Of a DNA stretch of 37,320 nucleotides, positions 4,472 to 27,756 are shown piece after piece. The translations under genes and the position numbers were made by a program. Source of the DNA: a virus (lineage: Duplodnaviria; Heunggongvirae; Uroviricota; Caudoviricetes); IMG/VR virus record IMGVR_UViG_2534681604_000010, positions 1-37,320 of that record. One strand, given 5' to 3'. Numbering within the stretch: the first letter of the stretch is position 1; each line of letters opens with the position of its first letter. The notes under the pieces were generated by a model. The model was not told the DNA's origin, made no database searches, and saw only the letters and a program-made list of their open reading frames with translations.

Positions 4472-7400
4472 GCGTCGTATCCCCCCTGATCGCTGTAGTT
4501 ACTCCTGGCTTTTGCCTTCAGCCTGCGTTCACGTTCATCAAGCTGGCGGGCCACCTCCCGCGCAATATCCTGCGCACTTTGTCCTGGCTGTGTCTGGATG
4601 ATGATCTGCGTCGGTGCTTCAATCCGGTAAATGGGCGGCACAGTAGCTGCACGACTCACCATCGCTTCACCGCCTTTTGCGGGAAGCGCCAAAGGATGCA
4701 ACGGTGGAAGCTCTGCTGGCGCGGCAGCAACACCCATCATTCCGGCGACAACGGCAGCCAGTGCAGCTGTATTTCTCCGGCTGGTCACGTTTGCCGGGCC
4801 GTTAACAATTTCCGGCCCGTTTTCACCGACGATGCCAAACTGCCCGCGCGGGATATAGCCGCCGCTGTCATACATCCCCGCAAAGCCATATCCCCATGAC
4901 GGAAAATCACCCGATGGCATCATCACTTTACCGTCTGCATTCACCGTCGCAGGTTGCTGACGCGTCACGCTTTCCGGCAGTTTCGCCTTTGCAGCCTCTT
5001 TACTGACAATGCCGAGTTTCTCCAGCAACCAGGAAACGCCGGATTTCAGGGAGTCCAGCGGATGCATGACCATATTCAGCCCTTCTGCCAGTGCCTCCCC
5101 GAATCGTCGCCCCATTGCCGCTGCGCTCTGCAGTTCGGCAGAGGTCGACTTAACGGGCGTCAGCAGATCAGTAAACCAGCCCCACAGCGCCTGCACTTTG
5201 TCGCCAATCCACTGGAACACGGGCTTAAGCGGTTCGAACGCTGCACTGATGGGACCTGCCGCCGCTTTGAATCCTTCCACCACGCCACCGAGAAATGCGG
5301 TGATGGGTTGCCAGTATTTCCAGACAACCAGCGCCACGCCCGCCAGTGCAGTAACCACAAGACCTATCGGACTGAGCAGAGCACCTAACAGACCAGATAT
5401 GGCATACAGGGCAACGCGCAGCATCGCCAGTGGACCAGATGCCAGTACTCGCAGCACCGTGCCTGCGGCGGCCAGTCCACCGCGCAGTACCGCCAGAGGA
5501 TTCATAAACATCACAGCAACAGCACATAAACCGGATAATCCAGACCGCAAAAGTGCAACCGGCGCACCTGCTACAGTTTTCAGGACATTTCCCGTCAGTG
5601 ATGCCGTGCGGCGCAAAGACGACAACGGCGCAGTAAGTAAACCTGCGGCGTTGCCCGATGAAGCAAGCCCGCGTCGCAGCAGTGCCAGTGGCGCGCCAGC
5701 CAGCCAGGACAACGCGCTGCTGGTTCGAGTTACTGCTGCCGTAACGGAAGATAACGTTTTGATACCCAACACAGAGAATCCCAGACGGATCACTGCCAGC
5801 GGCCCCAGCACTGCAGCCAGCGCCACCGCTAAGGTGCCGAGGCCGACGGTAACCGCAGCCACAACAGCCGATGCTTTCATCAGTGTGCCTGTCAGTTCCG
5901 GGTTAGCTTCCACCCAGCGACGCAACGCCCCCGTGACGCTTTTCACCGTGTACAGAATATCCATCAGCGGCTGGCGCAGCGTTTCGCCCAGGCTGCTGAA
6001 GGTGTTCTGCGCTCCGGTTTTGACCAGCAACCACTGCGCAGAAAGTGAATCCTTGTTAATGTCGGATTCTTTCTGCATGGAGCCGAGCGCATCATTGCCC
6101 GCTGTCAGTTTTAACTGACGCTGCAGTTCCGGCAGGTTGTTTGCCAGTTTCGCCGCGTCATCGCCAAACTCTTTACCAAACAACATAGTCATGGCAGACA
6201 GGCGCTTGTCCTGCGGCAGCGCGTTTACCTTCTCCAGCACGCGCTGGATGGTTCCCATCGCATCCTTCGTCATCTGCTTTTCAATCACTTCAGGATTGAG
6301 TTTCAGCAGATTCATCCCTTCAAAGAAACTCTTGCTTTGCATGGTGGCAATGGACAATTCACGCACCATCGCGTTTGCTGCACTGGCTGCAACCTCTGGT
6401 GCAGCGCCCAGTGTCAGGAAGGTGGAACCCAGCGCCGCCGCTTTACGATAATCCAGACGGTCAGCCACACCGCCCAGACGTTGCATCACATCAATGATGT
6501 CTGCCCCTTTCGACATGGCGTTATCATCCAGATAGTTCAGCGCATCACCGAGCTGTTCAATATTGCGGGTGGGGATTTTGTAGAGCTGGGCGATTTTCCC
6601 CAGACTTTCTGACAATTCATCCGCTGGCAGCTCAAAGGCTGTTGCCGCCTTTGCTGCCGTACTGGCGAAGGCCAGCAGGTCACGTTTCTGATCTTCCCAG
6701 CTGTCGTCAGGGTTTGCGACGTTCATGCGCGCACCACCTTCAACCAGTGCAGCGAAGTCCACCGCACCGTTTTCCATCGGCAACTGTTCGCTGGCAGCCT
6801 TGATGGCATCCTGCATTTCATAAAAACGTGCAGTGCGGTTGCCATTATCGTCACGCAGACCATTGACCTGCTTTGCCACACCTTTCATGGCATCTTCCAT
6901 GCTGGTATAGCTTTTTACTGCCGCCATCACTGGCGCACCCATTGCCAGCCCTGCAGCCGTGGTGGTGGCTCCGGCACCTGCAATACGATCACGCACCTCC
7001 AGCGAACGGGCATAACTGGCACGCGCTGCATTCATCCTGCGCTGAGCTTCCCCCAGTCGCTTCAGCCGCGCCTCCTGTTTCGAAAGTTCCTGGTTATAAC
7101 GTGATGTTTCACGGGCTAAACGGGCAGTTGCTCCCGCATCGTCTTTCGCAGAAATTCCCGCCCGGTACAGTTCAGCACGCACAAGCGCCGTCTGCTGCTG
7201 CAGCTTTTTCTGGCGTTCTTCCAGGCGCTGAACAGCCAGCCGTTGACGGCCCAGAGCAACAACCTGACGTTGCGAAGGCGGCCCCATCGCTCCCAGTTCC
7301 TGACTGAGCAAATTTGCACGCTGGCGGGCATAGTTCAGCCTGTCGCCTAATTTCTGATTTTCTGCCTGCAGCTTTCGGAAGCTGTCCAGACTGCTCCCGG

Positions 7401-7545
7401 CCTGATCAAGCTGCTTTATTGCATCGCGGGATTTTTTGACAGCAGCAGCCAGTTCTCTTGAACTAGCCTGCGCAGATCGAAATGGGCGGGTGAGCTTGTC
7501 AACCGCATTAAGAATGACCTGCAGACGCAGGTTGTTATCACTCAT
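4468..7545 (-). CDS. T: Tail tape measure protein gpT
   Basis: 1025-aa ORF, Ala/Leu-rich with coiled-coil N-terminus and glycine-rich C-terminal region; sits between E/E' and U. Confidence 0.9.
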   Translation of the reverse strand: MSDNNLRLQVILNAVDKLTRPFRSAQASSRELAAAVKKSRDAIKQLDQAGSSLDSFRKLQAENQKLGDRLNYARQRANLLSQELGAMGPPSQRQVVALGRQRLAVQRLEERQKKLQQQTALVRAELYRAGISAKDDAGATARLARETSRYNQELSKQEARLKRLGEAQRRMNAARASYARSLEVRDRIAGAGATTTAAGLAMGAPVMAAVKSYTSMEDAMKGVAKQVNGLRDDNGNRTARFYEMQDAIKAASEQLPMENGAVDFAALVEGGARMNVANPDDSWEDQKRDLLAFASTAAKAATAFELPADELSESLGKIAQLYKIPTRNIEQLGDALNYLDDNAMSKGADIIDVMQRLGGVADRLDYRKAAALGSTFLTLGAAPEVAASAANAMVRELSIATMQSKSFFEGMNLLKLNPEVIEKQMTKDAMGTIQRVLEKVNALPQDKRLSAMTMLFGKEFGDDAAKLANNLPELQRQLKLTAGNDALGSMQKESDINKDSLSAQWLLVKTGAQNTFSSLGETLRQPLMDILYTVKSVTGALRRWVEANPELTGTLMKASAVVAAVTVGLGTLAVALAAVLGPLAVIRLGFSVLGIKTLSSVTAAVTRTSSALSWLAGAPLALLRRGLASSGNAAGLLTAPLSSLRRTASLTGNVLKTVAGAPVALLRSGLSGLCAVAVMFMNPLAVLRGGLAAAGTVLRVLASGPLAMLRVALYAISGLLGALLSPIGLVVTALAGVALVVWKYWQPITAFLGGVVEGFKAAAGPISAAFEPLKPVFQWIGDKVQALWGWFTDLLTPVKSTSAELQSAAAMGRRFGEALAEGLNMVMHPLDSLKSGVSWLLEKLGIVSKEAAKAKLPESVTRQQPATVNADGKVMMPSGDFPSWGYGFAGMYDSGGYIPRGQFGIVGENGPEIVNGPANVTSRRNTAALAAVVAGMMGVAAAPAELPPLHPLALPAKGGEAMVSRAATVPPIYRIEAPTQIIIQTQPGQSAQDIAREVARQLDERERRLKAKARSNYSDQGGYDA

Positions 7546-7974
7546 CGTTGGCCCCGCTTCTCTGAATCGCTTTATACCGCCATTCCAGCACTTCGGTCAG
7601 CGGCATAACGTCAGTAACGGATGGCGGCCAGTGAAAAATGGTGGCGATATCTGCCACCAGATCGTCAACCGTCAGGCTGTCGGTAAACCGGCAAGCACCG
7701 ACTTCTTCAACAAAAAAGTGACAACCTCAACCGACATGGCAGTGAGATCTGCCGGGTCCATCTCTGCAATTTCCTGTGCAGTCAGTGCCGGACTGGAGAT
7801 GCGGGGGATCACGGTCATCATCGCGTTTACATCCATATCCATAATGGCCTGCAGGCGTGTACCGCGCAGCGCACCGGACTGCGGTTTACGCAGCACAATT
7901 TCGGTGATTTCTGTTTTACCGCGCTTGATGGGGGTATCCAGTTGAATGGTCTTTTCAGTCTGCTTATCGCTCAT
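7538..7974 (-). CDS. E+E': gpE+E' tail assembly chaperone made by programmed -1 frameshift at T_TTT_TTG (7711..7717)
   Basis: Hand translation of the -1 frame after the slip site stays open for 59 codons (FFVEEVGACRFTDSLTVDDLVADIATIFHWPPSVTDVMPLTEVLEWRYKAIQRSGANDE) and stops at TGA 7538..7540, overlapping the T start at 7545. The frameshift itself is established for P2 E/E'. Confidence 0.65.
7672..7974 (-). CDS. E: Tail assembly chaperone gpE (zero-frame product)
   Basis: 100-aa ORF between FII and T; contains slippery heptamer T_TTT_TTG near its 3' end. Confidence 0.8.
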   Translation of the reverse strand: MSDKQTEKTIQLDTPIKRGKTEITEIVLRKPQSGALRGTRLQAIMDMDVNAMMTVIPRISSPALTAQEIAEMDPADLTAMSVEVVTFLLKKSVLAGLPTA

Positions 7975-8028
7975 TTTGCTGTCCTGTCAATTGGGTTCTG
8001 GCGCGGTATCCCGCGCCGTTCAGATATA

Positions 8029-8544
8029 TCAGAGGCCGAGGGCGTTGCGGTGCGCTTCCATCAGGTCCACACCGTCCACAATTTCCACCATGTTGATAAG
8101 GTCCACTTCATAGAGCACCTCACCATTGATGGTCAGCTTCGCGTAGCTGTTGGTACTGGTCACTTTGGTGGTGTTGCTTTCGCCCGTCTTCCACTCGCCG
8201 GAATCCACTTCTTTGTGACGTCCACGCACGACAAGCTCCACGGCCTGCACTTCCCCGGTATCGTCACGCTGAATAGAGCCGGTAAAGCGCAGCTGGATGC
8301 CATCCACCGTGGCTTTACCCATCTGTTTAAACAGCAGCAATTCAGTACCACCAATGGAAAATTCTGTGTCCAGCGCACTGTCATCAAGCCCCAGATCCAC
8401 ATCCACCGCACCCGGCATTCCGCCGCCGCGATACTTCTCATATTTGCGGGTAAATTTCGGCAGCGTCAGCGACTCAACGATCCCCTGCCAGTTGTTCCCG
8501 TCGTTAAACAGGTTCAGGTGTTTTAATTTGCGTGGTAAAGCCAT
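8029..8544 (-). CDS. FII: Tail tube protein gpFII
   Basis: 171 aa; immediately downstream of the sheath gene; P2 FII-like. Confidence 0.9.
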   Translation of the reverse strand: MALPRKLKHLNLFNDGNNWQGIVESLTLPKFTRKYEKYRGGGMPGAVDVDLGLDDSALDTEFSIGGTELLLFKQMGKATVDGIQLRFTGSIQRDDTGEVQAVELVVRGRHKEVDSGEWKTGESNTTKVTSTNSYAKLTINGEVLYEVDLINMVEIVDGVDLMEAHRNALGL

Positions 8545-8553
8545 GTTGTCCCC

Positions 8554-9726
8554 TTACGCGCTGACCTGGCTGGCGAAATTCACCAGGTACTGATCGGTGA
8601 TGCGCTGACGCAGCATCAGGTTTTCAAGTGGCGGCACTGGCGTGTAGTCGTAGTCGATGGTGAGTTTTCCGGCTTTCAGCGTGTCTTTGTCGTTCACCAA
8701 CTCATCCAGCCAGCAATCACCACCAATGAGATAGCCCTGACTGACCAGGCTGCGCATTTTGGCGCGGATACCTTCGATAATGTCGCGGGCCAGCGACGGG
8801 TTAAGCGGTTTATCCACCGCCCACATGTGTGCTTCTGCCATCGTGTCCATCAGCACCTGCGCCGTGCGGGTGTAGTTTTCGAAGGCAAAGAGCGGGTCAT
8901 CACTCAGGCAGCGGGAACCCCAGAAGCGGAAACCGTCTTTACGCACAAGCGTGGTGACGTCGTTCTGGTTCAGCAGACCTGCATCGGTTGCCGGGTCCTG
9001 CAGATCCCAGAACACATCTGCAGAAATTCCGGTGACACCGTTCACGCCCACGTTGGACAGGCTTTTGTGCCATCCGGTCTGCTCGTCAATTTTGGCGCGC
9101 AGACCAAGCGCACGGGCGGTGGCATATGCCGTTGCTTCGGCATTCAGCACCGTGTCCCAGCCAGTAAAGTCAGGCCAGATCAGCATCCCTTCGCGCTGGC
9201 TGAAGTTTTCGCGGTAAGTGATCGCCTCCTGCACTGTCTTGCAGCCATACGCTGACAGGTAAGCAAATCCACGCAGGCTTTGCGCCACGCTCAGCAACTC
9301 AGTAGCTACCGCCTTGGTGTCGTGGCCTGGCACGCCGAGAATGCGCGGTTTAACGCCGAGCTGTGACTGGGCAGATAACAGGGCTTTCATACCTGTTTTT
9401 TTACCTTCAGCAGTCACTGCGCCGATGATATTGGTCGTGGTTTCGTCTTCCGTTTCACCCTGCGGCACACGCACAACAATGGTCACGGGTTTTGCCTGGT
9501 CAGCGATGGCATCCAGCGAACGGGCCAGAGTACCTGACTCACCCGCTTTACCGCTGGCAGTCAGCACATCAGTGATCAGCACGGGTTTATTAAGAGGAAA
9601 CATTTTTGCATCGGCATCATCGCCCGTACAGACCATACCCACGATGGCGGTGCTCACCGTGGTAATAGATCGGGTGCCTTCGTTGACTTCAACAACGCGC
9701 ACCCCGTGGTGGTAATCCTGAGCCAT
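8554..9726 (-). CDS. FI: Contractile tail sheath protein gpFI
   Basis: 390 aa; strong RBS CAGGAGG upstream; P2 FI-like. Confidence 0.9.
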
Positions 9727-9868
9727 AGTGGCGAACCTCCTGATTGGATTAGGCTTCGCCCTATGTTGAAGTGATTGTGCCTGACAAACAGCTAAGCGCA
9801 GTTGTGTCGTTATTCACACAAAATAACGGTATTTGTCTGCTTGCAGGGATAATCAACATAATGCTGAT

Positions 9869-10441
9869 TCAGGGGGATTCATTGATCTTATTTGCCGGAA
9901 ATTTTCTATAAATGGTAGAAACGCCTACATCAAAAATCAGTGCAATACGCTGTATTGATTCTCCGGCCTCGAGTAAACGCCCAATCTGTGCCCACTGTTC
10001 GGTGGTCAACTTAGGACGGCGTCCACCTACTCTGCCTTTGGCACGAGCTGCAGCCAGCCCTGCCCTGGTACGTTCAACTATCAGTTCGCGTTCCATTTCA
10101 GCCAGGGCACCCATGACATGAAAAAAGAAACGGCCCATTGGGGTACTGGTATCAATACTGTCAGTCAGGCTTCTGAAATTCACACCACGCTGGCGCAACT
10201 CTTCTATCAGCGTAACAAGATGCCGCATACTGCGCCCCAACCTGTCCAGCTTCCAGACAACCAGCGTGTCTCCTGCCGATAGTGTCCTGAGCAGTTTTTT
10301 CAACCCTAGTCTGTCGGACTTAGTGCCACTGATTTTATCCTCAAAAATCCGCTCACATCCCGCGCAGTTCAGTGCATTACGTTGCAAATCGGTGTTCTGG
10401 TCATTTGTTGACACGCGTACATAGCCAGTAAGCATGATCAT
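9869..10441 (-). CDS. Serine recombinase, DNA invertase of the Hin/Gin/Pin/Cin family
   Basis: N-terminus GYVRVSTNDQNTDLQRNAL with catalytic Ser motif, central VVWKLDRLGRS, C-terminal HTH; very close to e14 Pin / Mu Gin as recalled. The true start may be the second Met at 10435. Confidence 0.9.
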   Translation of the reverse strand: MIMLTGYVRVSTNDQNTDLQRNALNCAGCERIFEDKISGTKSDRLGLKKLLRTLSAGDTLVVWKLDRLGRSMRHLVTLIEELRQRGVNFRSLTDSIDTSTPMGRFFFHVMGALAEMERELIVERTRAGLAAARAKGRVGGRRPKLTTEQWAQIGRLLEAGESIQRIALIFDVGVSTIYRKFPANKINESP

Positions 10442-10491
10442 CTCCTAGAATAAAAATCGGGGATGATGCCAGTTAGTCGTAATCGCTGCAT

Positions 10492-10517
10492 TTTCTTAAA
10501 TGTTGTTTGGGAGAGGA
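10492..10517 (+). other. Degenerate hix-like crossover site (relic) about 50 bp upstream of the invertase gene
   Basis: TTTTCTTAAATGTTGTTTGGGAGAGG resembles the site at 12409..12434 (outer half-site, TT core, inner GGTTTGGGAGAA) but has a 1-bp deletion in the inner half-site. Confidence 0.35.
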
Positions 10518-10713
10518 GGCGAAACTCGACGCTGCACACAGTGTATTTTTTTATAGATCTTGGGCTATATTCCCATTAATAGGCTGTAATAAGTTAAGAG
10601 TGCAATGGGAGCGTTGGAAGGGAGATATAACAAGCACTACGTATAATTGTGATTTCACGTTTCCTATGTCATTTCATGAACTTGTTTCGGCGTATATTCA
10701 AGCGCAGGTGTAA
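10507..10713 (+). pseudogene. Orphan promoterless tail-fibre C-terminal cassette (probable remnant)
   Basis: ORF opens with TTG GGA GAG (L-G-E) inside the relic crossover site, in the same register as the alternative fibre tip at 12426; only 68 aa and no Tfa gene follows. Confidence 0.3.
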
Positions 10714-11016
10714 TGGCATCTAATTATGATTATGTATTATCTTATAGAATTTTAAGAAAAGCTGTTTCAATCATCTAACTAACGAAACCCGTTGTTAATG
10801 CTCAGTTTTTTCCTTGTCGATATGCTGCTTTGTAGCTGACGTATGTTTACTTGGCTTGTAATATGTTTCTAATTAAACCCTGTAGAGATCTTGATCATTA
10901 CTCAGGAAAGAATAATAAGCGGTTAGTTAAAATTCCCGCTAAGGCTGCACTTTAAAATGACAACTTTAGCGGAGGATAAATTGTACTTACATGTGTAAAT
11001 TTTAGGCATTAATTGT

Positions 11017-11439
11017 TTAAACTTTAGTCTCTGGTGAAGAGTCTTTTTTGAAGCTATCATCCTCCTTCTTCCCAAACATGTAACCTAGAGATAACGTAAT
11101 AATTGGGGTGAAAACAGCCCAAGAATCTTTAACTATATTTAAAGCTGACTGTCCCCCATTACTGAAGACATCAATCACTAATAATGCTGCAACAATACAG
11201 GAATAAATAGTCAGTGAATACGTTATTACATGCCAAACAACACTGTTTTTAGCATCATCACCTTTACCTATTTTATCGGGAATGCTTTCCTCGCTTTTAT
11301 TTCTCACTCTTACTGGAATATCACCATCCTGATAATCACCTTTGGTTGATTTTTTGCTTCTTGACGAACTACCTGAGATAGAAAAAGAGCCACCCGCCTG
11401 CTCATACTGTTCATACTGTTCATACTGTTCATCAGACAT
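11017..11439 (-). CDS. Hypothetical membrane protein: acidic EQY-repeat N-terminus, two predicted TM helices
   Basis: 140-aa ORF in AT-rich DNA; MSDEQYEQYEQYEQ then hydrophobic stretches ITYSLTIYSCIVAALLVIDVF and AVFTPIITLSLGYMFG; no similarity to P2 core genes that I recognise. Confidence 0.5.
   Translation of the reverse strand: MSDEQYEQYEQYEQAGGSFSISGSSSRSKKSTKGDYQDGDIPVRVRNKSEESIPDKIGKGDDAKNSVVWHVITYSLTIYSCIVAALLVIDVFSNGGQSALNIVKDSWAVFTPIITLSLGYMFGKKEDDSFKKDSSPETKV
11401..11431. repeat. In-frame 9-bp tandem repeat (TCATACTGT, about 3.3 copies) encoding the EQY repeats
   Basis: Read directly from the sequence; unit is a multiple of 3 so copy-number change keeps the frame. Confidence 0.8.
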
Positions 11440-11442
11440 AAG

Positions 11443-11880
11443 TCATTCCCCATCCGCATCCAGAACTTCTTCTTTTGTAGCTATATTTACCGTCAACAGA
11501 ATAGCATCATTATTTTCAGATAATGATTGGGTGGCAAAGAATAAATAATAGTTAAAAGTTTTCTTTTCACCGTTATTTGGTTCTAGGGTTTGTTTAAAAA
11601 ATCTTGTCCGAGTACCATCGTTAACACCTGCATCAACATGGAAAAAATTGATAAGATTAATATTTAACCCATCTTTAATCGTAGTTTTTACTCGAGGGAC
11701 AACCTCACCTTTTTCGTCTTCTTTTTTATCAACATCAAACTTAAGTCTTAATTTAAAATCGCCATAAAATTCAACTTCAGGGTTAGCAGCAAGAACCACC
11801 AATGTTTGAGAAAATACGACATCCATCCCCGATATTTTAGTTTTAATTTGCTTTTTCATTTGCACGCTCTTTTTTTGCAT
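11443..11880 (-). CDS. Hypothetical soluble protein (Lys/Asp/Glu-rich), middle gene of the AT-rich cassette
   Basis: 145-aa ORF ending 3 nt before the next gene; no family recognised. Start may be an internal Met. Confidence 0.5.
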   Translation of the reverse strand: MQKKSVQMKKQIKTKISGMDVVFSQTLVVLAANPEVEFYGDFKLRLKFDVDKKEDEKGEVVPRVKTTIKDGLNINLINFFHVDAGVNDGTRTRFFKQTLEPNNGEKKTFNYYLFFATQSLSENNDAILLTVNIATKEEVLDADGE

Positions 11881-12136
11881 TCAGATTACTATGATCTGGG
11901 TTATCATTTAACTTATTCAACGAAGGGCTATTCATACAGATATAATAAGTAATAAATATAATTATTATTACAATAAAGCCAGACTTACACATGATTCTAT
12001 ACATAAACTTCCCTATATCTTTAAATACTGATGTGTCGATAAGGGAAGGGACGCGCCATAGGAATCGACCAAAGGCAAAAAGGAATAATGTAACCATTAC
12101 TCCACTTGCTATATATATATAAATTTTGATATCCAT
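11843..12136 (-). CDS. Hypothetical small membrane protein (two predicted TM helices), first gene of the AT-rich cassette
   Basis: 97-aa ORF with hydrophobic segments IYIYIASGVMVTLFLFAFGRFLW and GFIVIIIIFITYYICM; overlaps the next gene by 38 nt. Confidence 0.4.
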   Translation of the reverse strand: MDIKIYIYIASGVMVTLFLFAFGRFLWRVPSLIDTSVFKDIGKFMYRIMCKSGFIVIIIIFITYYICMNSPSLNKLNDNPDHSNLNAKKERANEKAN

Positions 12137-12408
12137 AAAAACCTTAAATTAGTTTTTCTATCCATCGCTTAATAAAAAAGGTTGAAATGATAAACTCTTC
12201 ATCTATTGACGCACTATTTAATATCATATTTTATAGAATATGTCGAGTATAGTTTTAACTTGGATTCGATATAACCACAGAACCATCGCCAACACCTAAA
12301 GATGTCGTCCATCCTTTGACGACTAAAACTTAACACTCAATATGAATGGTTGTTTTATATACAGCCGCACCGTTCGTAGCGCATTGGAAACGTAAGGTAA
12401 ACGCATTA

Positions 12409-12434
12409 CTCTCTTTAAGGTTGGTTTGGGAGAA
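12409..12434. other. 26-bp hix/gix-like crossover site, invertase-proximal end of the invertible tail-fibre segment
   Basis: CTCTCTTTAAGG-TT-GGTTTGGGAGAA; the inner half-site plus core is a perfect 14-bp inverted repeat of 14295..14308. Confidence 0.6.
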
Positions 12435-12773
12435 GCGGCTAAAAGGAATGTAGGGACAGGGGCGAATCAGATACCTGATATGGGTAGCTTCACGCTTTCT
12501 GTTTCAGGTACTGGATATCAAAAATTACCATCAGGTTTTATTCTTCAGTGGGGCTCAATCGGCGCACCAGGCATTGCACAGGATGTAGTAACCCATTTCC
12601 CGATTGCATTTCCAAACAGATGTCTGCGTGTTTTGGTCTCACAAGACTACACACCAGATAGCGGGGCTGTTGGTTATATTGCCTGTGCAGGTTTTAGTCC
12701 CGACCCGGTTAAATTTATATCCAGAGCCAGTACTCCTGGCCTCGGCGCTTCATTTTTAGCGTTAGGCTGTTAA
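12426..12773 (+). CDS. Alternative tail-fibre C-terminal segment (silent in this orientation)
   Basis: The frame is open from 12396 and has no ATG of its own; it begins inside the crossover site with codons G-L-G-E, identical to the codons at the crossover site within H, so inversion would fuse it in frame to the H constant region. Confidence 0.65.
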
Positions 12774-12794
12774 TTTAGCTATATGGAGTGAAAA

Positions 12795-13235
12795 ATGAAT
12801 TACATATATTCCGCGACTACAAACTCTTTCTATCCGCTGGAGATGAAAGAGGATTACACTCAAGCTGACTCATGGCCAGATGATGCTGTTGAAGTTGATG
12901 AGCAGGTGTATATTGAGTTTTCCGGATTACCGCCGAAAGGAAAAATCCGTATCGCTGGAGAAAATGGTTTTCCTGCATGGTCTGAAATTCCACCACCAAC
13001 ACATGAGGAACAGATTGCTGCAGCCGAACTGGAAAAGCAGCAATTGATTAATCAGGCCAACGATTATATGAACAGTAAACAATGGCCTGGTAAAGCGGCT
13101 ATTGGTCGTCTGAAAGGTGACGAACTGGCGCAATATAATTTGTGGCTGGATTACCTGGACGCACTGGAACTGGTCGATACTTCCGGTGCGCCAGATATTG
13201 AATGGCCTACGCCTCCGGCAGTTCAGGCCAGATGA
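12795..13235 (+). CDS. Tail fibre assembly protein, alternative copy (Tfa', U'-like)
   Basis: 146 aa; C-terminus ...LWLDYLDALELVDTSGAPDIEWPTPP parallels the C-terminus of the active Tfa; convergent with it, 29-bp overlap. Confidence 0.8.
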   Translation: MNYIYSATTNSFYPLEMKEDYTQADSWPDDAVEVDEQVYIEFSGLPPKGKIRIAGENGFPAWSEIPPPTHEEQIAAAELEKQQLINQANDYMNSKQWPGKAAIGRLKGDELAQYNLWLDYLDALELVDTSGAPDIEWPTPPAVQAR

Positions 13236-13809
13236 CATCCGGCGCGGTGCTGGTATCTGTTGCCGTCACCGCGTCAATGTAATCCAGCACAGCGTTAAGT
13301 CGGGTTGTTTCTGCCTGCGTCAGTTTACGTCCGGCCTGCAATTTCAGTTGAATCAGACTAATGGAAGCCATTGCAGTATCAATCAGTGACTGACGCTGTG
13401 CTTCTGCCGCGCCTACTGCGGCGCTATGCTGTGCCACAGTATCTGTTACCCATTTCTCACCATCCCATTCATCGTATGGCGTTAACGGGGCGATAGTGGT
13501 TGTATTTTCAGGATAATCACCCGGAGCTGTGATTTCTTTCGATTCTCCTGTTTCGGTGCTATAGATGATTTCACCGCGATGGTCTGGCACATATTCCCAT
13601 GAGTTTAAATCTGCCGAACGGCAGATTGCATAACCAGCCTTATGTGTGCCAGGGGAATCTAAACAGGAACATGCCGGAATGCCGACACCAACGGCAAGAT
13701 ATTCATTTGAAGTGGAAATATATTCCCGTGTTTCACCATCATAGTTATAAACGGTAACATCCCCTGCCTTTGTTGCAATGAGCTCACTATTTAATATTGC
13801 TTTATGCAT
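13207..13809 (-). CDS. G: Tail fibre assembly protein (gpG-like Tfa), currently expressed orientation
   Basis: 200 aa immediately downstream of H; conserved Tfa C-terminal motif ...LDYIDAVTATDTSTAPDVIWPELPEA. Confidence 0.85.
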   Translation of the reverse strand: MHKAILNSELIATKAGDVTVYNYDGETREYISTSNEYLAVGVGIPACSCLDSPGTHKAGYAICRSADLNSWEYVPDHRGEIIYSTETGESKEITAPGDYPENTTTIAPLTPYDEWDGEKWVTDTVAQHSAAVGAAEAQRQSLIDTAMASISLIQLKLQAGRKLTQAETTRLNAVLDYIDAVTATDTSTAPDVIWPELPEA

Positions 13810-15356
13810 CAGGCTGCCCTCACGATATAGTTAAATGCAATATTACGCGGACGCGTTTCTGAGGCTGCGGCACCTAAACCAGCCACTGATTGTTTATATG
13901 TTTTAAAGGTTCCATAATCCGGTGCTGGTAATCCGGCATCGTTTGTGTTTCCTCTTTTGATAATGTCAGTGCCACTATTTACCCAGCTTTCATCAAAATA
14001 GAAATTAATCGTTGCATCAGTCACAATCGTGGATCTTGACGGTAATCCATGAGCATGATCCTCCGTTGCATACCCCTGAATACTTAAAATAGAGCGACCT
14101 GTATCAATCCCCCGCCCGTCATCCCAGCCACGAATAAACTCACCACGTAAATCAGGCAATTTATTTGTCGGGTAAACTTTTGCCAGTTCCGGGTATTCTT
14201 CAGCAGAAAAAGCTGCACCATTGCATTTCAGCCAGCCTGTTGGCGGAGTGGCTGAAGGCCACGGAACAGGGACACCAACAGGTAATGCAGAGCCTTCTCC
14301 CAAACCAAGGTATGTGAGAAGACCAGCTACATCCTTTCCACTCAAATTAGTCAGCGTATTGTCCAGCGGTTGTTTACCTGCCAGCGCATTAAGCATTGTC
14401 GTGGCAAAGTTCGGATCATTCCCCAGCGCCGCCGCCAGTTCGTTCAATGTATCCAGTGCCGCAGGTGCAGAACCCACCATTCCTGCAATCGCCGATTTCA
14501 CAAAAGCCGTAGTGGCAATCTGTGTATTGTTGACCGACTGTGCCGCAGTAGGTGCTGTTGGCGTTCCGGTAAGTGCCGGACTCGACAGCGGCGCTTTCAG
14601 TGCCAGCGCATTATTAATAGTGGTACTGAATTTCGGGTCATTGTTAATGGCTGCGGCAATTTCTTTCAGTGTGTCCAGCATGGCTGGCGCACCGTTAATC
14701 AGAGCAGTAATAGCGGCCTGAACAAACTCTGTGGTCGCAATCCGAGTGGTGTTATTTCCTGCTGCAGGCGTCGGCGCTTTTGGTTCTCCGGTAAATGTCG
14801 GATTATGTTTCTGCGCATACTGGGTATGAGGATCTTGTGCGGCAATGTGGTTTCTCATCTGGTCATCCACATACAGCTTTAATTCCAGGACTTTATCATC
14901 CACGTATTTACGGGTTGCCAGCACTACAGCAGGGTCGATTTTCAGGATGATATTGTCCGTGCTGCTGGTAATCAGCACCATGCGCACGGTCTGGGTACGC
15001 CCGCTGCCTTCAGCCAGTTGCGGCTTATAGCTTTCCGGGCAGTTTCCCACGGCAATCAATGCCCCGGACTCATCAAACAGGCCCACTTCACGTATCCACC
15101 AACCGCCCTCGTTTTCAGGGATCACCTGTTCAGCAATAATCTGGCTACTGTTCTGCGGGTCGATATAAAGCATATTCAGCGCAGCCCGGCGTTTCTCATT
15201 TACCAGTGCCGTCTGCTTTGCGTCCGGCGTTGGCAATACTCCGCCGCCATCGCCCACCGCCATATGGGTAATTTTTAGCGGCACACCGAGCGCGGCGGCG
15301 CTGGCAAGTTTCGCCGCGCCAATATCCGTCAGCAGGGTATAAAATTTTGTGCTCAT
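13809..15356 (-). CDS. H: Tail fibre protein gpH (constant N-terminal part plus variable C-terminal part in current orientation)
   Basis: 515 aa; N-terminus MSTKFYTLLTDIGAAKLA... recalled as P2 H-like; contains a crossover site at 14295..14320. Confidence 0.9.
   Translation of the reverse strand: MSTKFYTLLTDIGAAKLASAAALGVPLKITHMAVGDGGGVLPTPDAKQTALVNEKRRAALNMLYIDPQNSSQIIAEQVIPENEGGWWIREVGLFDESGALIAVGNCPESYKPQLAEGSGRTQTVRMVLITSSTDNIILKIDPAVVLATRKYVDDKVLELKLYVDDQMRNHIAAQDPHTQYAQKHNPTFTGEPKAPTPAAGNNTTRIATTEFVQAAITALINGAPAMLDTLKEIAAAINNDPKFSTTINNALALKAPLSSPALTGTPTAPTAAQSVNNTQIATTAFVKSAIAGMVGSAPAALDTLNELAAALGNDPNFATTMLNALAGKQPLDNTLTNLSGKDVAGLLTYLGLGEGSALPVGVPVPWPSATPPTGWLKCNGAAFSAEEYPELAKVYPTNKLPDLRGEFIRGWDDGRGIDTGRSILSIQGYATEDHAHGLPSRSTIVTDATINFYFDESWVNSGTDIIKRGNTNDAGLPAPDYGTFKTYKQSVAGLGAAASETRPRNIAFNYIVRAA
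14295..14320. other. 26-bp hix/gix-like crossover site inside gene H (constant/variable junction)
   Basis: TTCTCCCAAACC-AA-GGTATGTGAGAA; on the H coding strand it encodes ...LLTYL-GLGE... Confidence 0.6.
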
Positions 15357-15958
15357 GGATTCACTCTCATTGTGTCAATAACATGGACCGCCCCGCCTTC
15401 ATGCGCGGTGCCGCCAGAAATAATTGTTTCGTTGATATACGGATAGATCGTGATTTCTTCGCCAAGATAGCTGGCGGCCCCCACCCAATGCGGACCGCTG
15501 GTCTGCAGATTGATGGACATGCCGATCATGTGACGGCTACATGGTTTGGCATCGCTTATCAGCCGCTCAAGTTCCAGATAGGTATCTTCAGTGATGCCCT
15601 GGTCCTGCACGCCGATATCCAGGCGAAACGTGCCCGGTGTTTCTCCGGTCTGCCACCACTCAATAATGCGGATCAGAAAGCCGAACGGCTCCACCACCCG
15701 CCGCACGGCACTGGTGGTCCCTTTATGCTGATGAATATAAAAAGCATCCTTCACCACCTGGCGCTTGACGCTTTCTGTCCAGCCCTCGTCCCAGCGATCC
15801 ACAGAGAACGCCCAGGCGAGGTAAGGCAGGAAACTGACCGGACAGGTTGCCGGATTCCACAAGTCACGCAGCGGCACTTGCAGATCAGAAATCCCGCTGC
15901 AGGTTTGCGCCAGTCGGCGCTCCAGTGGTGTTGAACCCGGAGGCAGCAGACTATTCAT
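15353..15958 (-). CDS. I: Baseplate protein gpI
   Basis: 201 aa; P2 synteny between J and H. Confidence 0.8.
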   Translation of the reverse strand: MNSLLPPGSTPLERRLAQTCSGISDLQVPLRDLWNPATCPVSFLPYLAWAFSVDRWDEGWTESVKRQVVKDAFYIHQHKGTTSAVRRVVEPFGFLIRIIEWWQTGETPGTFRLDIGVQDQGITEDTYLELERLISDAKPCSRHMIGMSINLQTSGPHWVGAASYLGEEITIYPYINETIISGGTAHEGGAVHVIDTMRVNP

Positions 15959-16859
15959 CCGTTCCTCCGTTGGTTACGCTCCACTGCGTACATGATGCCG
16001 CCTGTGTTTTGTTCAGAACCACATCCGCCAGCGGAGAAGCCAGTTCCACACGTTGAACACCCTCAACATGCAGCGCGGCAAAAATAGCACTACGGCGAAT
16101 ATCCCGACCGAGCCGCGTCTGACTGGCGATGTACCTCTGCAGGCTGACTTTTGCCGCTGCCATTACCGGCTCTGCTTCCGGTCCCGGATAAAGAAAAATG
16201 GTGGCTTCCACACGGTACGGGATGATTTCTGCGCTGCGAACCGTAAGACGGTCAGCCACCGGGCGGACGTTCTCACTGTTCAGAGCTTTTTCCACCATGT
16301 CCAGCAGGTCTTTTTCTGCAGTTCCATCGCCTTCGCGGCTAAGGACAGTCAGCACCACCTCTGCAGGTGCCGGGCTGGTTGCACTGGCATCCGCCACCCG
16401 GCCGTCGGCGCTTCGGGCATGAAATTCATAAGCTGCAGTTGGCCCCGCAACTGAAAGCCCTTCAAAGGCTGCAGGCACACGCAGGCGTAACGCTTCATCG
16501 CTTTCCATCACAGCTGCAACGGGTGGCACAGCGTCATTATCAGCAGGCGTCACCGTCAGGCGTTTCACGTTGTAGTTGGCAGCGAGCTGGTCAAGATCGC
16601 TGCCCATCGCGTAAGCCACCATCACAGCCTGCGCGGCTTCGTTAATGCGTTGGCGCAGAAGCAACTCACGGTAAGCGTTCTCCTGCAGCAATTTGGTGAC
16701 GGGTTCAGATTCCAGTTCCAGCGTGCGGATCACTGCTTCCTGCTCATCTTTCGGATGAAGCGCCACAAATTCGGCCTTGCGTTCGGCAAGCAGCGTCTCA
16801 AAGTCCGGCACATCCACAATCTGCGGCGCAGGCAACTGCGAAAGGTCAATCACTGCCAT
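15951..16859 (-). CDS. J: Baseplate protein gpJ
   Basis: Start chosen at the internal Met (MAVIDLSQLP...) giving 302 aa and a 14-nt overlap with W; the ORF-track start at 16898 is likely an upstream extension. Confidence 0.8.
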   Translation of the reverse strand: MAVIDLSQLPAPQIVDVPDFETLLAERKAEFVALHPKDEQEAVIRTLELESEPVTKLLQENAYRELLLRQRINEAAQAVMVAYAMGSDLDQLAANYNVKRLTVTPADNDAVPPVAAVMESDEALRLRVPAAFEGLSVAGPTAAYEFHARSADGRVADASATSPAPAEVVLTVLSREGDGTAEKDLLDMVEKALNSENVRPVADRLTVRSAEIIPYRVEATIFLYPGPEAEPVMAAAKVSLQRYIASQTRLGRDIRRSAIFAALHVEGVQRVELASPLADVVLNKTQAASCTQWSVTNGGTDE

Positions 16860-17205
16860 TCTCTGCTCCTGTTGATACGGAAAGGGAAACAGGCACACCG
16901 TTATTACGCCGCCCGGTCAGCTCCACCACCATAGAACCGTCAAAGTTGCTGTTGATGGTGATGGAATCAAGCGTCAGCCGTGGCTCCCAGCGACTCAGCG
17001 CCACATACACTGCCGACATGACCTGCAGGCGTAATGCCGGATTTTGTGGCTGGTCTATCAGTGCCGACAGCAGGGAACCATATTCCCGACGGGCAATGCG
17101 GCTACCCTGTGGCGTCAGCAGAATGTCCCGCACCGACTGGCGCAGATGGTCAATATCAGTAATGACTTTGCCGCTGGTATTGTTCATCCCGCTATAAAGC
17201 GTCAT
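16846..17205 (-). CDS. W: Baseplate wedge protein gpW (GPW/gp25 family)
   Basis: 119 aa; 4-nt overlap with V; P2 synteny. Confidence 0.8.
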   Translation of the reverse strand: MTLYSGMNNTSGKVITDIDHLRQSVRDILLTPQGSRIARREYGSLLSALIDQPQNPALRLQVMSAVYVALSRWEPRLTLDSITINSNFDGSMVVELTGRRNNGVPVSLSVSTGAENGSD

Positions 17206-17780
17206 ACCGGGCCTCCGGTTGTATCGCCGCCTTTCAGGACGCCAGTATGCTGATGCGCATCAACCACGATCCCGTTAGAACTCATCGCTCCGCCGCCCTG
17301 GGTAACGCCACCATTGATCACCACTTCGCTGTTAATGCGCGTGCGGTCAGCCTCCAGTACAAACTCACTGGTTTTCATGGTGATGTTGTCAGCGGCCTCA
17401 ATGACCATTGATTTGATGCCCCTGACATACCAGCGCCCGGTGGCGGGTTCGTATTCAAACCAGCCACCGTCAGGATGTTCTGTCACGCAGGCGTCCGCCG
17501 ACGTCGACGGTGGCGCGAACTGATTCGAATAGATGGCGGGTAACGCAAAGGCGGTTTCCAGATTGCCGCCCAGACTCAGCAGCACCACCTGCTCACCTTC
17601 CGATGGTCGCCACCATGTGCGGGCATTCCCGGCACGCAGCGTCAGCCAGCTGATCCAGTTGGTTTCAAGCTCGCCCGTTTTCACCCGGCAAAGCCAGTTT
17701 TCCCTGTCCACTTCGGTGACTACCCCAGTGCGGATCAGGTTGGTGATAAGGCGCATGATTTCGGTTAATTGTGCGTTCAT
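17202..17780 (-). CDS. V: Baseplate spike / assembly protein gpV
   Basis: 192 aa; P2 synteny. Confidence 0.8.
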   Translation of the reverse strand: MNAQLTEIMRLITNLIRTGVVTEVDRENWLCRVKTGELETNWISWLTLRAGNARTWWRPSEGEQVVLLSLGGNLETAFALPAIYSNQFAPPSTSADACVTEHPDGGWFEYEPATGRWYVRGIKSMVIEAADNITMKTSEFVLEADRTRINSEVVINGGVTQGGGAMSSNGIVVDAHQHTGVLKGGDTTGGPV

Positions 17781-17848
17781 AGGGAAAGGTTGCCATCAGG
17801 GGAAGAAAGGCGGCAGTGCTGCAACTTGTATCAGTGCTGATACAAAGA

Positions 17849-18295
17849 TCACTCCGCCAGCCATTGCAGAATCATGTCGCGGGTCATTGCCTCAACATCA
17901 TCATTTACACCCAGCAGGCGGCGCTCTGCGTAACGGACCTCCGGTCCTTTGCGACTGACGCGATCACGCAGGCCGTAATGGTGAACACGGGCAATACGCT
18001 GCACCTTGCCTTCAAACTGTACGCTGGCAGAGTCGGCGCTGGCGGCAGTTTTCAGGTATTTTGTGGTGCGCAGCTTTGCAAACATCTGACGTTTGATGCG
18101 GCCTTTTTTACTGCGTGCTGTTACCCGTCGCGGTTCATAGCTGCTGCCGTCAGGGTTGCGCTGCATCCTGATGTTCTGCTGCTGTGTCCGGCGCAGTTCC
18201 TGCGCCAGCTGGCGCATCATGCGACTTCTGGCGGCTGGCTCCAGATTCGCCAGCAAGGCACTCAGCCAGTCGTCCACTTTCTGCAGTTCAGCCAC
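17849..18295 (-). CDS. S: Tail completion protein gpS
   Basis: 148 aa; overlaps the R stop; P2 synteny. Confidence 0.8.
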   Translation of the reverse strand: MAELQKVDDWLSALLANLEPAARSRMMRQLAQELRRTQQQNIRMQRNPDGSSYEPRRVTARSKKGRIKRQMFAKLRTTKYLKTAASADSASVQFEGKVQRIARVHHYGLRDRVSRKGPEVRYAERRLLGVNDDVEAMTRDMILQWLAE

Positions 18296-25565: not shown

Positions 25566-26593
25566 TGGGAAAGAGTAAGAAAAACCGCGCTGTGTCGACG
25601 AACCAGATTCAGCATAAAAGCCAGACTTCAGCCGAAGCATTCAGCTTTGGCGATCCCGTTCCTGTTCTGGACCGCCGCGAACTGCTGGACTATGTGGAAT
25701 GCGTACAGACAGATCGCTGGTATGAGCCGCCAGTGAGTTTTGACGGACTGGCGCGAACCTTCCGCGCTGCCGTGCATCACAGTTCACCAATTGCGGTGAA
25801 ATGCAACATTCTGACCAGTACCTACATCCCTCACCCGCTTCTCAGCCAGCAGGCTTTTTCACGTTTTGTGCAGGACTATCTGGTATTTGGTAACGCTTAC
25901 CTGGAGAAACGCACGAACCGGTTCGGTGAAGTTATCGCCCTTGAGCCTGCTCTGGCAAAATACACCCGACGTGGGTTAGACCTGGATACCTACTGGTTTG
26001 TGCAATACGGTATGACAACCCAGCCGTATCAGTTCACGAAAGGCAGCATTTTTCATCTGATGGAACCAGATATCAACCAGGAGATCTACGGCCTGCCCGG
26101 TTATCTTTCTGCCATTCCGTCAGCCCTGCTCAACGAGTCCGCCACGCTGTTCCGCCGTAAGTATTACATCAACGGCAGCCATGCAGGCTTCATCATGTAC
26201 ATGACCGACGCCGCGCAGAACCAGGAAGATGTAAACAATCTCCGTAACGCGATGAAAAGCGCCAAAGGTCCAGGCAACTTCCGCAACCTGTTTATGTACT
26301 CGCCTAACGGCAAAAAAGACGGGCTTCAGATTATTCCTCTGTCAGAAGTCGCGGCAAAGGATGAATTTTTGAATATCAAGAACGTGAGCCGGGATGACAT
26401 GATGGCTGCGCACCGCGTGCCGCCGCAAATGATGGGGATTATGCCTAATAATGTTGGAGGGTTTGGGGATGTGGAGAAGGCGAGTAATGTTTTTGTAAGA
26501 AATGAACTAACATCATTGCAAAAAAGATTTGAAGAATTGAATATATGGTTAGGTAAAACTGTTATCAGTTTTGACGCCTACAAACTTGAATAA
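25562..26593 (+). CDS. Q: Portal protein gpQ
   Basis: 343 aa; ATGA overlap with P; P2 Q-like. Confidence 0.9.
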   Translation: MMGKSKKNRAVSTNQIQHKSQTSAEAFSFGDPVPVLDRRELLDYVECVQTDRWYEPPVSFDGLARTFRAAVHHSSPIAVKCNILTSTYIPHPLLSQQAFSRFVQDYLVFGNAYLEKRTNRFGEVIALEPALAKYTRRGLDLDTYWFVQYGMTTQPYQFTKGSIFHLMEPDINQEIYGLPGYLSAIPSALLNESATLFRRKYYINGSHAGFIMYMTDAAQNQEDVNNLRNAMKSAKGPGNFRNLFMYSPNGKKDGLQIIPLSEVAAKDEFLNIKNVSRDDMMAAHRVPPQMMGIMPNNVGGFGDVEKASNVFVRNELTSLQKRFEELNIWLGKTVISFDAYKLE

Positions 26594-26600
26594 TTATTTG

Positions 26601-26620
26601 AAAGGTGCCCTGGCACCTTT
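26601..26620. terminator. Hairpin between convergent Q and the accessory membrane-protein gene (likely bidirectional terminator)
   Basis: AAAGGTGC-CCTG-GCACCTTT perfect 8-bp stem, flanked by T-rich sequence. Confidence 0.45.
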
Positions 26621-27305: not shown

Positions 27306-27360
27306 ACATTACAAGATTCCATTTTATTTTAATAGCGCCCACTTACGCAGACGCCCCATA

Positions 27361-27651
27361 TTATTCTTTAATAAGAGTACCCCAATCTACATCAGATTCT
27401 GCAACTACAATATTAATTGAACATTGTATGCACTCCTCACTTATTCTCGTATAAGTGAAATATCTAGTTTTAACAATACCACTAAACGAAGACCGACTAT
27501 TGTCATTACATATAGAGACAAAATCACCTACATTGGGAAGTAGAAGAAAAGGATTTTCTTCTGACGAACAGCCTACTATATCTCCGTCATCAATTGGTCT
27601 TGTGGACCCTTTAGGCAAGTATTGGTAATCATAGCTATATATCGTCTTCAT
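27361..27651 (-). CDS. Hypothetical small protein, upstream partner of the membrane protein
   Basis: 96-aa ORF, same strand, 55 bp upstream of 26619..27305; AT-rich. Confidence 0.45.
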   Translation of the reverse strand: MKTIYSYDYQYLPKGSTRPIDDGDIVGCSSEENPFLLLPNVGDFVSICNDNSRSSFSGIVKTRYFTYTRISEECIQCSINIVVAESDVDWGTLIKE

Positions 27652-27737
27652 AACCTATCATTTTCCATATCTAAAACTTCATAGAGGGACTAAATATCCT
27701 TCGCATTTTACATTTAGTCAATATTTTTCAATTCAAT

Positions 27738-27756
27738 CTGTTATGTCATCCCGCGC
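27738..27756. other. Candidate cos cohesive-end site
   Basis: Minus-strand GGCGTGGCGGGGATACGAG; the first 13 nt match the P2/186 cos end as I recall it (GGCG[A/T]GGCGGGGA); surrounded by GC-rich short repeats. Confidence 0.45.

Follow-up and report, generated by a model that had tools for sequence, protein, structure and literature searches.

The tail-fibre locus analysed here raises the question of whether a single prophage can present two alternative receptor-binding tips by turning a piece of its own DNA, and of whether such a switch is still in working order. The window (that is, the whole stretch of DNA analysed, 37,320 nt) had been taken in a preliminary description to be a P2-like prophage, and this is borne out by a gene order of the P2 type (ogr, D, tape measure, E, tube, sheath, the fibre locus, I, J, W, V and, further on, capsid, terminase, portal, A, CI, and integrase) and by colinearity with the annotated Escherichia coli HH194M prophage over nearly the full length, the neighboring Pfam families in sister loci being in agreement. 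The locus is in all probability a working invertible tail-fibre segment of the Din family (Pin/Gin/Cin/Hin type) in a complete P2/186-like prophage. Its anatomy, its reading frame, the homology of its sites and enzyme to those of e14, P1, and Mu, and the two natural orientations of the element carry this reading (Table 1).

Table 1. Coordinates of the features of the invertible tail-fibre locus within the window.
Feature	Position	Strand	Details
DNA invertase gene	9869..10435	-	188 aa from MLTGY; an in-frame ATG upstream at 10441 would give 190 aa
Predicted recombinational (Fis) enhancer in the 5' end of the invertase gene	10346..10417		G-N13-C 15-mers at 10351-10365 and 10400-10414
Relic third crossover site A	10491..10516	+	TTTTCTTAAATG TT G-TTTGGGAGAG; core 10503-10504; direct repeat of L
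Remnant of a third tail-fibre tip cassette, truncated	10507..10713	+	68-aa ORF, LGEEAKLDAA...
Three-gene AT-rich accessory module	11017..12136	-	ORFs 11843-12136, 11443-11880, 11017-11439; GC 29-38%
Left crossover site L	12409..12434	+	CTCTCTTTAAGG TT GGTTTGGGAGAA; core 12421-12422
Silent variable tip, gp53-like C-terminal domain	12423..12773	+	Pfam Gp53-like_C 3.6e-15
Silent tail-fibre assembly chaperone Tfa'	12795..13235	+	Pfam Caudo_TAP 1.5e-37; PHROG 188
Tail-fibre assembly chaperone Tfa, expressed, TfaE-like	13207..13809	-	Pfam Caudo_TAP 1.3e-31
Variable C-terminal part of H now expressed, Collar tip	13809..14306	-	Pfam Collar, H residues 361-408
Right crossover site R, within H	14295..14320	+	TTCTCCCAAACC AA GGTATGTGAGAA; core 14307-14308
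Constant N-terminal part of tail fibre H	14309..15356	-	Pfam Phage_tail_fib 1.4e-63

Crossover Sites and Alternative Tips

The starting point was a perfect inverted repeat, which is real and, at 15 bp, slightly longer than the 14 bp first reported (TTGGTTTGGGAGAAG at 12421–12435, with its complement at 14294–14308). The 14-mer common to L and R has exactly two copies in the 37-kb window, one per strand, even with two mismatches allowed, against a mean of 0.28 matches in shuffled sequence. By itself a 15-bp inverted repeat is little more than chance could give in 37 kb, where about 0.65 would be expected by our own arithmetic. Chance is excluded because the repeat sits at the boundary between the constant and variable parts of H, because the frame is kept, and because L and R have the same 14-bp half-site-plus-core as the e14 pix sites. 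The two 26-bp sites had been assigned to the Hin/Gin/Cin/Pin type, and they do align with the pix, cix, and gix sites as found in the records of e14, P1, and Mu, with a 12+2+12 layout of two 12-bp half-sites in inverted orientation around a common core TT/AA. The inner half-site and core are close to cixL and cixR of P1, and R and P1 cixR agree in 21 of their 26 positions. In its outer half (CTCTCTTTAAGG), L is a weak match to the consensus, with GG, not CC, beside the core, which counts against a working switch. A scan of the window for the inner half-site with at most two mismatches returned L, R (both halves), the relic site A, and three unrelated single half-sites elsewhere, and thus no further crossover site within the invertible segment. 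An exact search of species-representative genomes with the 26-bp L site gave no match.

The segment bounded by these sites has the organization of a tail-fibre cassette switch. The constant 5' part of H lies outside it, and inside it are two convergent pairs of in-frame tip and chaperone genes. The positions first given for Tfa, Tfa', and the silent-tip ORF are correct, and the families found are those expected (Caudo_TAP for both chaperones, Gp53-like_C for the silent tip, Phage_tail_fib plus Collar for H, and Resolvase plus HTH_7 for the invertase); the short ORF leading out of site L is without a Pfam match. As had been noticed, the inner half-site encodes G-L-G-E on both coding strands (GGT TTG GGA GAA), in H (...TYLGLGEGSALP...) as well as in the silent-tip reading frame (...GLGEAAKRN...). 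When 12423–14306 was flipped in silico, the reading frame ran on without interruption from the H constant part into the silent gp53-like tip and encoded a 466-aa H', so that the earlier claim that inversion preserves the frame also holds. Over 13058–14320, identity to the e14 P segment (its tfaE/stfE half) is 94.5%. The two tips belong to different domain families (Collar vs. Gp53-like_C); they probably recognize different receptors, and the orientation of the segment would be expected to change host range.

Invertase, Putative Enhancer, and Proposed Mechanism

The invertase has the architecture of a small serine recombinase, namely an N-terminal catalytic domain with the active-site serine and a C-terminal helix-turn-helix (Pfam Resolvase 3.3e-51 and HTH_7 6.4e-16; PHROG 125, DNA invertase, 4e-99). 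It can be aligned over its whole length with the crystal structure of Gin (3uj3, E 1.9e-89) and keeps the GYVRVSTNDQ serine motif. Its proposed closeness to e14 Pin was confirmed, PinE being the nearest relative (85.1% identity) ahead of Cin (77.5%) and Gin (73.8%). In the DRPGL stretch, which is conserved elsewhere, the invertase of this lineage has L in place of P (DRLGL). This substitution counts against an active enzyme, although it is common to the whole island-bearing lineage described below, which still has both orientations and several cassette sets.

Within the 5' end of the invertase gene there is a putative recombinational enhancer, which the preliminary description missed. It is predicted from a gapless alignment to the annotated P1 cin enhancer (gene nt 19–90), and this stretch is 72–88% identical to gin, cin, and pinE, as compared with 65–74% elsewhere in the gene. 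Of the two G..C 15-mers, that at nt 71–85 is found in all five genes compared and that at nt 22–36 in four of the five; only the former fits a strict Fis regular expression, the latter fitting only the looser G-N13-C rule. The centers of the two 15-mers are 49 nt apart in the register used, and the corresponding spacing of the Fis sites in hin is 48 nt. A scan of 9700–12500 for promoters and terminators returned no more sites than in shuffles and is for this reason uninformative on the invertase promoter.

By homology with Hin and Gin, dimers of the invertase would bind the 26-bp sites L and R, and, with Fis on the intragenic enhancer, would form an invertasome. Cleavage at the TT/AA core dinucleotides and a 180-degree rotation of one half would then turn round the 1884 bp that separate the cores. 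With the segment oriented as in the window, the H constant part is read with the Collar-type, StfE-like tip, followed by Tfa; in the flipped orientation, it would be read in frame with the gp53-like tip, followed by Tfa'. Since the H constant part is fused to one tip or the other depending on orientation, a population of lysogens would release virions with either of the two receptor-binding tips. The need for Fis and the enhancer is likely by analogy with the known systems. The flipping is probably done by the prophage's own copy of the invertase; the enzyme of another prophage could also do it, since Din invertases complement one another.

Both Orientations among Isolates

The two orientations expected of a Din-family system were found in nature, with breakpoints at the crossover sites, in comparisons between isolates and not within one culture. 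A near-identical prophage that also has the island described below (assembly L006) has flanks that are 99.78 and 99.97% identical to the window and a segment that is inverted, the 1888-bp overlap being 100.000% identical. The alignments overlap exactly across the 15-bp repeat, and the breakpoints fall inside 12421–12435 and 14294–14308. In L006 the gp53-like tip is the C-terminus of a 466-aa H' that equals the predicted protein with 0 mismatches, and the Collar tip, identical in sequence, is silent and inverted. A second pair comes from E. coli QML220614 and HH194M, whose island-less sister prophages (L001 and L004) are 99.95–100% identical apart from the inversion and have protein accessions in common. 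The search for both orientations that had been proposed thus succeeded in two pairs, window and L006, L001 and L004. Among complete E. coli genomes, the native junction is present in 375 and the flipped junction in 24. In relatives with other tips, similarity is lost exactly at 12434/12435 and returns at 14293–14296. That the segment also flips in the strain of the window is suggested by this comparison of isolates.

It could be argued that the architecture is inherited and that this prophage no longer flips by its own means, the difference from L006 being old or produced in trans. The geometry of the locus indeed departs from that of 51 of 53 relatives, the outer half-site of L is weak, the invertase has the DRLGL substitution, and L is displaced by 2 kb from the predicted enhancer, where about 100 bp is usual. 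Long distances between site and enhancer have been shown to alter reaction control in Hin; on the other hand, the same work shows that enhancers act at a distance (PMC3798978). What decides against a lost switch is that L006 and the window are in opposite orientations despite only 3–4 substitutions in more than 9 kb of flank, and therefore the flip must be recent and must have taken place within the island-bearing lineage, which in addition has several cassette sets in both orientations. We consider the loss of autonomous flipping improbable, and the working switch remains the preferred reading.

The AT-Rich Island and Relic Site A

The invertase is not adjacent to the segment, a point missed in the preliminary description: it is about 2 kb away, with an AT-rich island and a decayed third crossover site in between. 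As a result of this 1.9-kb island, which separates the invertase from the active left site, the distance of L from the invertase start is 1985 nt, where 67 nt would be canonical. This canonical distance, found in 51 of 53 related viral contigs, is occupied by the core of the relic site A. The inner half-site of A has a 1-bp deletion, and by our own count A scores about 10 of 20 on the consensus used, where working sites score at least 16. The single left site of island-less relatives (L001 2195–2226) aligns to both 10493–10524 and 12412–12443 of the window. The tip remnant that follows A is without a Pfam match; in tblastn it matches a silent tip of the P1-like Cronobacter phage JK004 over the N-terminal half of the latter (46% identity, E 1e-9), and that tip itself comes after a cix-like site adjoining the invertase of the phage.

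These features have to be weighed against the possibility that A is active and that the locus is a three-site shufflon with four states, comparable to the EPEC prophage of the P2 type with its three repeats; recombination between A and R would then also flip the island. The copies are arranged as in the EPEC shufflon (two direct and one inverted), the tip remnant follows A, and two related contigs (L087 and L101) have three good sites. However, A has the 1-bp deletion between core and recognition sequence together with a poor match to the consensus, a joint between A and R would be out of frame, the tip is truncated at 68 aa, and the orientation of the island relative to the invertase is the same in 8 of 8 island-bearing loci examined. 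Site A was accordingly rejected as a working third state on account of the deletion, the frame shift, and the truncated tip, and an active shufflon is judged very improbable; its A–R product would show the junction …CATACC TT GTTTGGGAGAGGAGG… (H-constant part …CATACC TT GTTTGGGAGAGGAGGCG). Hardly credible is the proposal that the orientation differences come from RecA-mediated recombination between inverted repeats or from assembly error, even though the convergent Tfa genes have an 18-nt imperfect inverted repeat (I4) in common, since the breakpoints lie in the 15-bp repeat with invertase-site structure and not in the Tfa repeat, RecA needs homology longer than 15 bp, the same two states occur in independent assemblies, and a 15-bp repeat cannot mislead an assembler.

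The rest of the island is occupied by a three-gene module, which is not part of the switch proper. None of its three proteins belongs to a Pfam, PHROG, PADLOC, or NCBIfam family; the sole match, to a 2TM effector model (E 0.04), was disregarded. This mobile module recurs, at about 78% identity over 10924–12143, in Serratia, where it lies between arsP and nrdG, and in Klebsiella, where its neighbor is an integrase; its middle protein occurs in 429 contigs. Searched by megablast and blastn, 5,426 complete E. coli genomes gave no match to the island DNA or to any of its flanks outside the module. As a separate observation, identity to E. coli is only 82.6% in the ybjL flank, and YbjL and H have exact protein matches under the name E. 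fergusonii, which points to a host chromosome of the Escherichia fergusonii type.

When island-bearing loci are compared with their island-less sisters, the island runs from core to core, the switch points being resolved to about 2 nt, and the sequence to the left of the A core and to the right of the L core matches the single site of the relatives. This pattern fits an invertase-catalyzed deletion between direct-repeat sites, giving the island-less form, and alternatively the integration of an excised circle, giving the island-bearing form; such a circle, if excised between A and L, would have the junction CTCTCTTTAAGG TT GTTTGGGAGAG. That invertase crossover sites might double as entry and exit points for accessory DNA is a tentative and rather unlikely suggestion. 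If true, the crossover sites of Din systems would serve much as attachment sites do, with the three-gene module as one example of their cargo, in the Z/fun hotspot of P2, and the displaced site L would be a natural test of an invertasome with a loop of 2 kb and not of 100 bp.

Significance and Comparison with Known Systems

Nothing in this locus is new in principle, as e14 Pin has the same mechanism, the same type of site, and one of the two cassettes, and as flipping has already been demonstrated by experiment in P2-like prophages. Its practical interest is that a prophage able to present two alternative receptor-binding tips matters for host-range prediction and for prophage typing, the latter because assemblies freeze one of the two states and annotators label the silent tip a fragment or a pseudogene. 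The presence of both orientations in the lineage, despite an active site 2 kb from the enhancer, is of modest value, and the core-bounded island hints at a route by which cargo may enter the tail-fibre hotspot of P2.

The closest known system is the P segment of e14, with its invertase Pin, in E. coli K-12. Apart from the 85% identical invertase, the two systems have the same 14–16 bp of core and inner half-site (TTGGTTTGGGAGAA[GG]), the expressed tip and Tfa correspond to the stfE/tfaE half at 94.5% identity, and the Tfa genes are likewise convergent and overlapping. The distance from core to ATG in e14 is 67 nt (own count from coordinates), a distance kept here by relic site A. In contrast, e14 is a defective lambdoid element and not a complete P2/186-like prophage, and in the present locus the other cassette has a gp53-like tip and the active site proximal to the invertase has been displaced by the 1.9-kb island. 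By phage family and by its place in the genome, with G/tail-fibre assembly on one side and the sheath gene on the other, the locus resembles, as far as their descriptions go, two other cases. In P2-like prophages of EPEC E2348/69, tail-fibre inversion has been shown by sequencing and PCR (Goldberg et al., 2014; PMC4272514), one of the loci having three repeats and three alternative C-termini; and in the Z/fun hotspot of P2, invertases with adjacent inversions have been reported (iLund4u preprint, bioRxiv 10.1101/2024.10.15.618418). Unlike the EPEC loci as described, the third cassette has here degenerated, and an unrelated three-gene module has taken the place of part of it. With P1 Cin and Mu Gin the locus has in common an invertase at 74–78% identity, an enhancer stretch (here predicted) in the 5' end of the invertase gene, and the logic of Sc-Sv/U and Sv'/U', whereas virion type and tips differ. 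The core is TT/AA as in the cix sites of P1, to which R is so close, whereas the gix core of Mu is TC/GA; on the other hand, the invertase gene reads away from the segment, as in Mu and e14, and in P1 it reads toward it. The P2-like prophage Fels-2 has an invertase of the same subfamily, Fin, also with 26-bp sites and a Fis enhancer. Finally, Hin and the hix sites of Salmonella correspond in enzyme subfamily, in the 26-bp sites, and, by prediction for the present locus, in the Fis enhancer (PMC3798978), although Hin flips a promoter and not coding cassettes.

Inversion of the tail-fibre segment among related prophages

The observation is confirmed, and its interpretation as an invertible tail-fibre segment is supported. 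Occurrence of both orientations had been set in advance as a test, and both were found between assemblies of different isolates, in two pairs of prophages. For the first pair, the middle protein of the AT-rich island that lies between the invertase gene and the left crossover site (L) was used as a lead and gave eight sister loci, among them L006, an island-bearing prophage of another isolate. The flanks of L006 share 99.78% (7000-12435) and 99.97% (14294-17859) identity with the window, and 12421-14308 is present there in inverted orientation at 100.000% identity. The fibre gene product of L006 is, with zero mismatches, the 466-aa H' predicted for the tail fibre H after a flip, and the tip expressed in the window is the silent cassette of L006. 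The second pair is an island-less sister prophage carried by E. coli QML220614 and HH194M (with protein accessions common to both), whose copies are 99.95-100% identical except for an inverted 1885-bp segment. Full-length matches to the native H-tip junction were found in 375 complete E. coli genomes, and to the in-silico flipped junction in 24. In sister loci with other tips, similarity ends at 12434/12435 and resumes at 14293-14296, and therefore the crossover sites also bound cassette exchange. In P2-like prophages of EPEC, flipping of tail-fibre segments has been shown experimentally, including a three-repeat shufflon (PMC4272514), and a recent survey has noted invertases and inversions at the Z/fun hotspot of P2-like phages (bioRxiv 10.1101/2024.10.15.618418).

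Crossover sites and reading frame

Features of the switch region in the window
Feature	Position	Strand	Sequence, domains or remark
Serine invertase	9869-10441	minus	Resolvase + HTH_7
Relic site A	10491-10516		TTTTCTTAAATG TT G-TTTGGGAGAG; canonical 67 nt from invertase ATG
Three-gene module	11017-12136	minus	remainder of the island besides A and the tip remnant
Site L	12409-12434		CTCTCTTTAAGG TT GGTTTGGGAGAA
Silent tip	12426-12773	plus	Gp53-like_C
Tfa' (assembly chaperone)	12795-13235	plus	Caudo_TAP
Tfa (assembly chaperone)	13207-13809	minus	Caudo_TAP
Tail fibre H	13809-15356	minus	Phage_tail_fib + Collar
Site R (inside H)	14295-14320		TTCTCCCAAACC AA GGTATGTGAGAA

Half-sites of the window aligned with those of e14 (pix) and P1 (cix)
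Site	Outer half	Core	Inner half
Window R (rc)	TTCTCACATACC	TT	GGTTTGGGAGAA
Window L	CTCTCTTTAAGG	TT	GGTTTGGGAGAA
pixL	CTCTCGAAAACC	TT	GGTTTGGGAGAA
pixR (rc)	TTTTCATAAACG	TT	GGTTTGGGAGAA
cixL	CAATCCTAAACC	TT	GGTTTAAGAGAA
cixR (rc)	TTATCCAATACC	TT	GGTTTAAGAGAA

The 26-bp sites L and R had been described as sharing a perfect 14-bp inverted repeat, which in fact extends to 15 bp (12421-12435 / 14294-14308). Copies of the 14-mer in the window number exactly two, one on each strand, with up to 2 mismatches tolerated (mean in shuffled sequences, 0.28). Comparison sites were taken from annotated records (P1 cixL, cixR and enhancer, the boundaries of the Mu G segment and the K-12 e14 region), and the expected alignment with known invertase sites was obtained, L and R being in register with both pix and cix. 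Around the e14 P segment, the longest inverted repeat is TTGGTTTGGGAGAAGG, identical in sequence to that of the window. The inner half-site GGTTTGGGAGAA encodes G-L-G-E, as proposed, in H as well as in the silent tip; the positions first given for Tfa, Tfa' and the silent tip match ORFs found in the window; and in-silico reverse complementation of 12423-14306 yields an H' of 466 aa open throughout, in agreement with the claim that inversion leaves the frame unbroken. The differing domain families of the two tips (Collar-type and gp53-like) suggest that a flip may alter host range. Tfa and Tfa' are convergent with a 29-nt overlap, an arrangement also seen in e14 tfaP/tfaE, and their conserved C-terminal ends produce an 18-nt, 89% inverted repeat (13145-13162 / 13271-13288). 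This repeat was rejected as the inversion breakpoint, because the window and L006 alignments overlap precisely over the 15-bp repeat.

Invertase, candidate enhancer and mechanism

The preliminary description placed the invertase close to e14 Pin, and its identity to PinE (85.1%) is indeed above that to Cin (77.5%) and Gin (73.8%). The protein can be aligned with the Gin crystal structure over its full length, and the catalytic-serine motif is conserved. Within the gene, a 72-nt stretch (10346-10417) aligns with the annotated P1 cin enhancer and includes two G-N13-C 15-mers (gene nt 22-36 and 71-85). Its identity to gin, cin and pinE is 72-88%, against 65-74% for the remainder of the gene; this conservation supports, without proving, a putative enhancer in the 5' part of the gene. 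By homology, invertase dimers on L and R and Fis on the enhancer would form an invertasome, in which cleavage at the 2-bp core would be followed by a 180-degree rotation to give inversion (PMC3798978). In Hin, multiple rotations are normally restrained by the short loop (PMC3798978). Three features call for caution about flipping, namely the weak outer half of L, the distance of ~2 kb between L and the candidate enhancer, and the replacement of P by L in the DRPGL stretch of this lineage's invertase. The latter change is common to the whole island lineage, in which both orientations still occur. The Din invertase of another prophage could also act on the segment in trans.

The displaced left site and the island

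In E. coli relatives the core of the left site lies 68 nt upstream of the invertase start (own count). Of 53 related viral contigs, 51 have 65-67 nt between core and ATG, and e14 and Mu have ~67 nt, counted from coordinates. Active L in the window is 1985 nt from the invertase start. The single left site of the relatives aligns twice in the window, its outer half with A and its inner half with L, and therefore the island (10505-12420; 1.9 kb, 29-38% GC) spans core to core (~2 nt); compared with island-less sister prophages, its ends fall within ~2 nt of the cores of A and L. Site A has a 1-bp deletion adjoining the core, an A x R joint would break the frame, and the orientation of the island is constant in all eight island-bearing loci. 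After A, within 10491-10713, a 68-aa ORF is homologous to the N-terminal half of a silent tip of the P1-like Cronobacter phage JK004, where that tip lies behind a cix-like site. From these sequence features, we read A as the probable dead remnant of a third cassette, in what would be a decayed EPEC-like three-site architecture. Among other related contigs, L087 and L101 have three good crossover sites each and are possible shufflons, and a different AT-rich insertion (~590 bp, ~5216-5884) separates the invertase from the proximal site in the IMG/VR contig L092.

The island was not found in 5,426 complete E. coli genomes, but 429 contigs, draft or other, carry its middle protein. The module encodes proteins of 97 aa (2 TM), 138/145 aa and 137/140 aa (EQY repeat, 2 TM), with no family match in Pfam, PHROGs, PADLOC or NCBIfam. 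Copies with ~78% identity were found in Klebsiella pneumoniae, next to an integrase, and in Serratia marcescens, where arsP and nrdG flank the module. The module is a mobile accessory unit unrelated to the switch, and a candidate exclusion or defence moron at the P2 Z/fun-position hotspot.

Prophage context and comparison with known switches

The P2-like assignment holds: the window spans a complete P2/186-like prophage, which is colinear with the one annotated in HH194M. Its flanks (1-2600, ybjM-ybjL, on the left; 36900-37320, the integrase end, on the right) indicate the ybjL-rcdA position, as in HH194M. The exact YbjL and H proteins bear the name Escherichia fergusonii and the ybjL flank has only 82.6% identity to E. 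coli; judging from these matches, the chromosome is E. fergusonii-like. Another variable spot is 17788-17897, without the 762-bp ORF that the HH194M sister prophage (L026 18177-18938) has between the baseplate V gene and a virion morphogenesis (S-like) gene. The old/tin-position hotspot (26524-29173, portal to replication gene) holds cargo unlike that of the sister prophage, comprising four ORFs without a family (228, 96, 203 and 71 aa) and a DinI-like protein of 101 aa (28931-29236).

The switch belongs to a well-known kind, and its principle was already known; only two aspects are mildly unusual, the displacement of the active site and an island that has crossover cores as its limits. The sites and one of the two cassettes are essentially those of e14 Pin.
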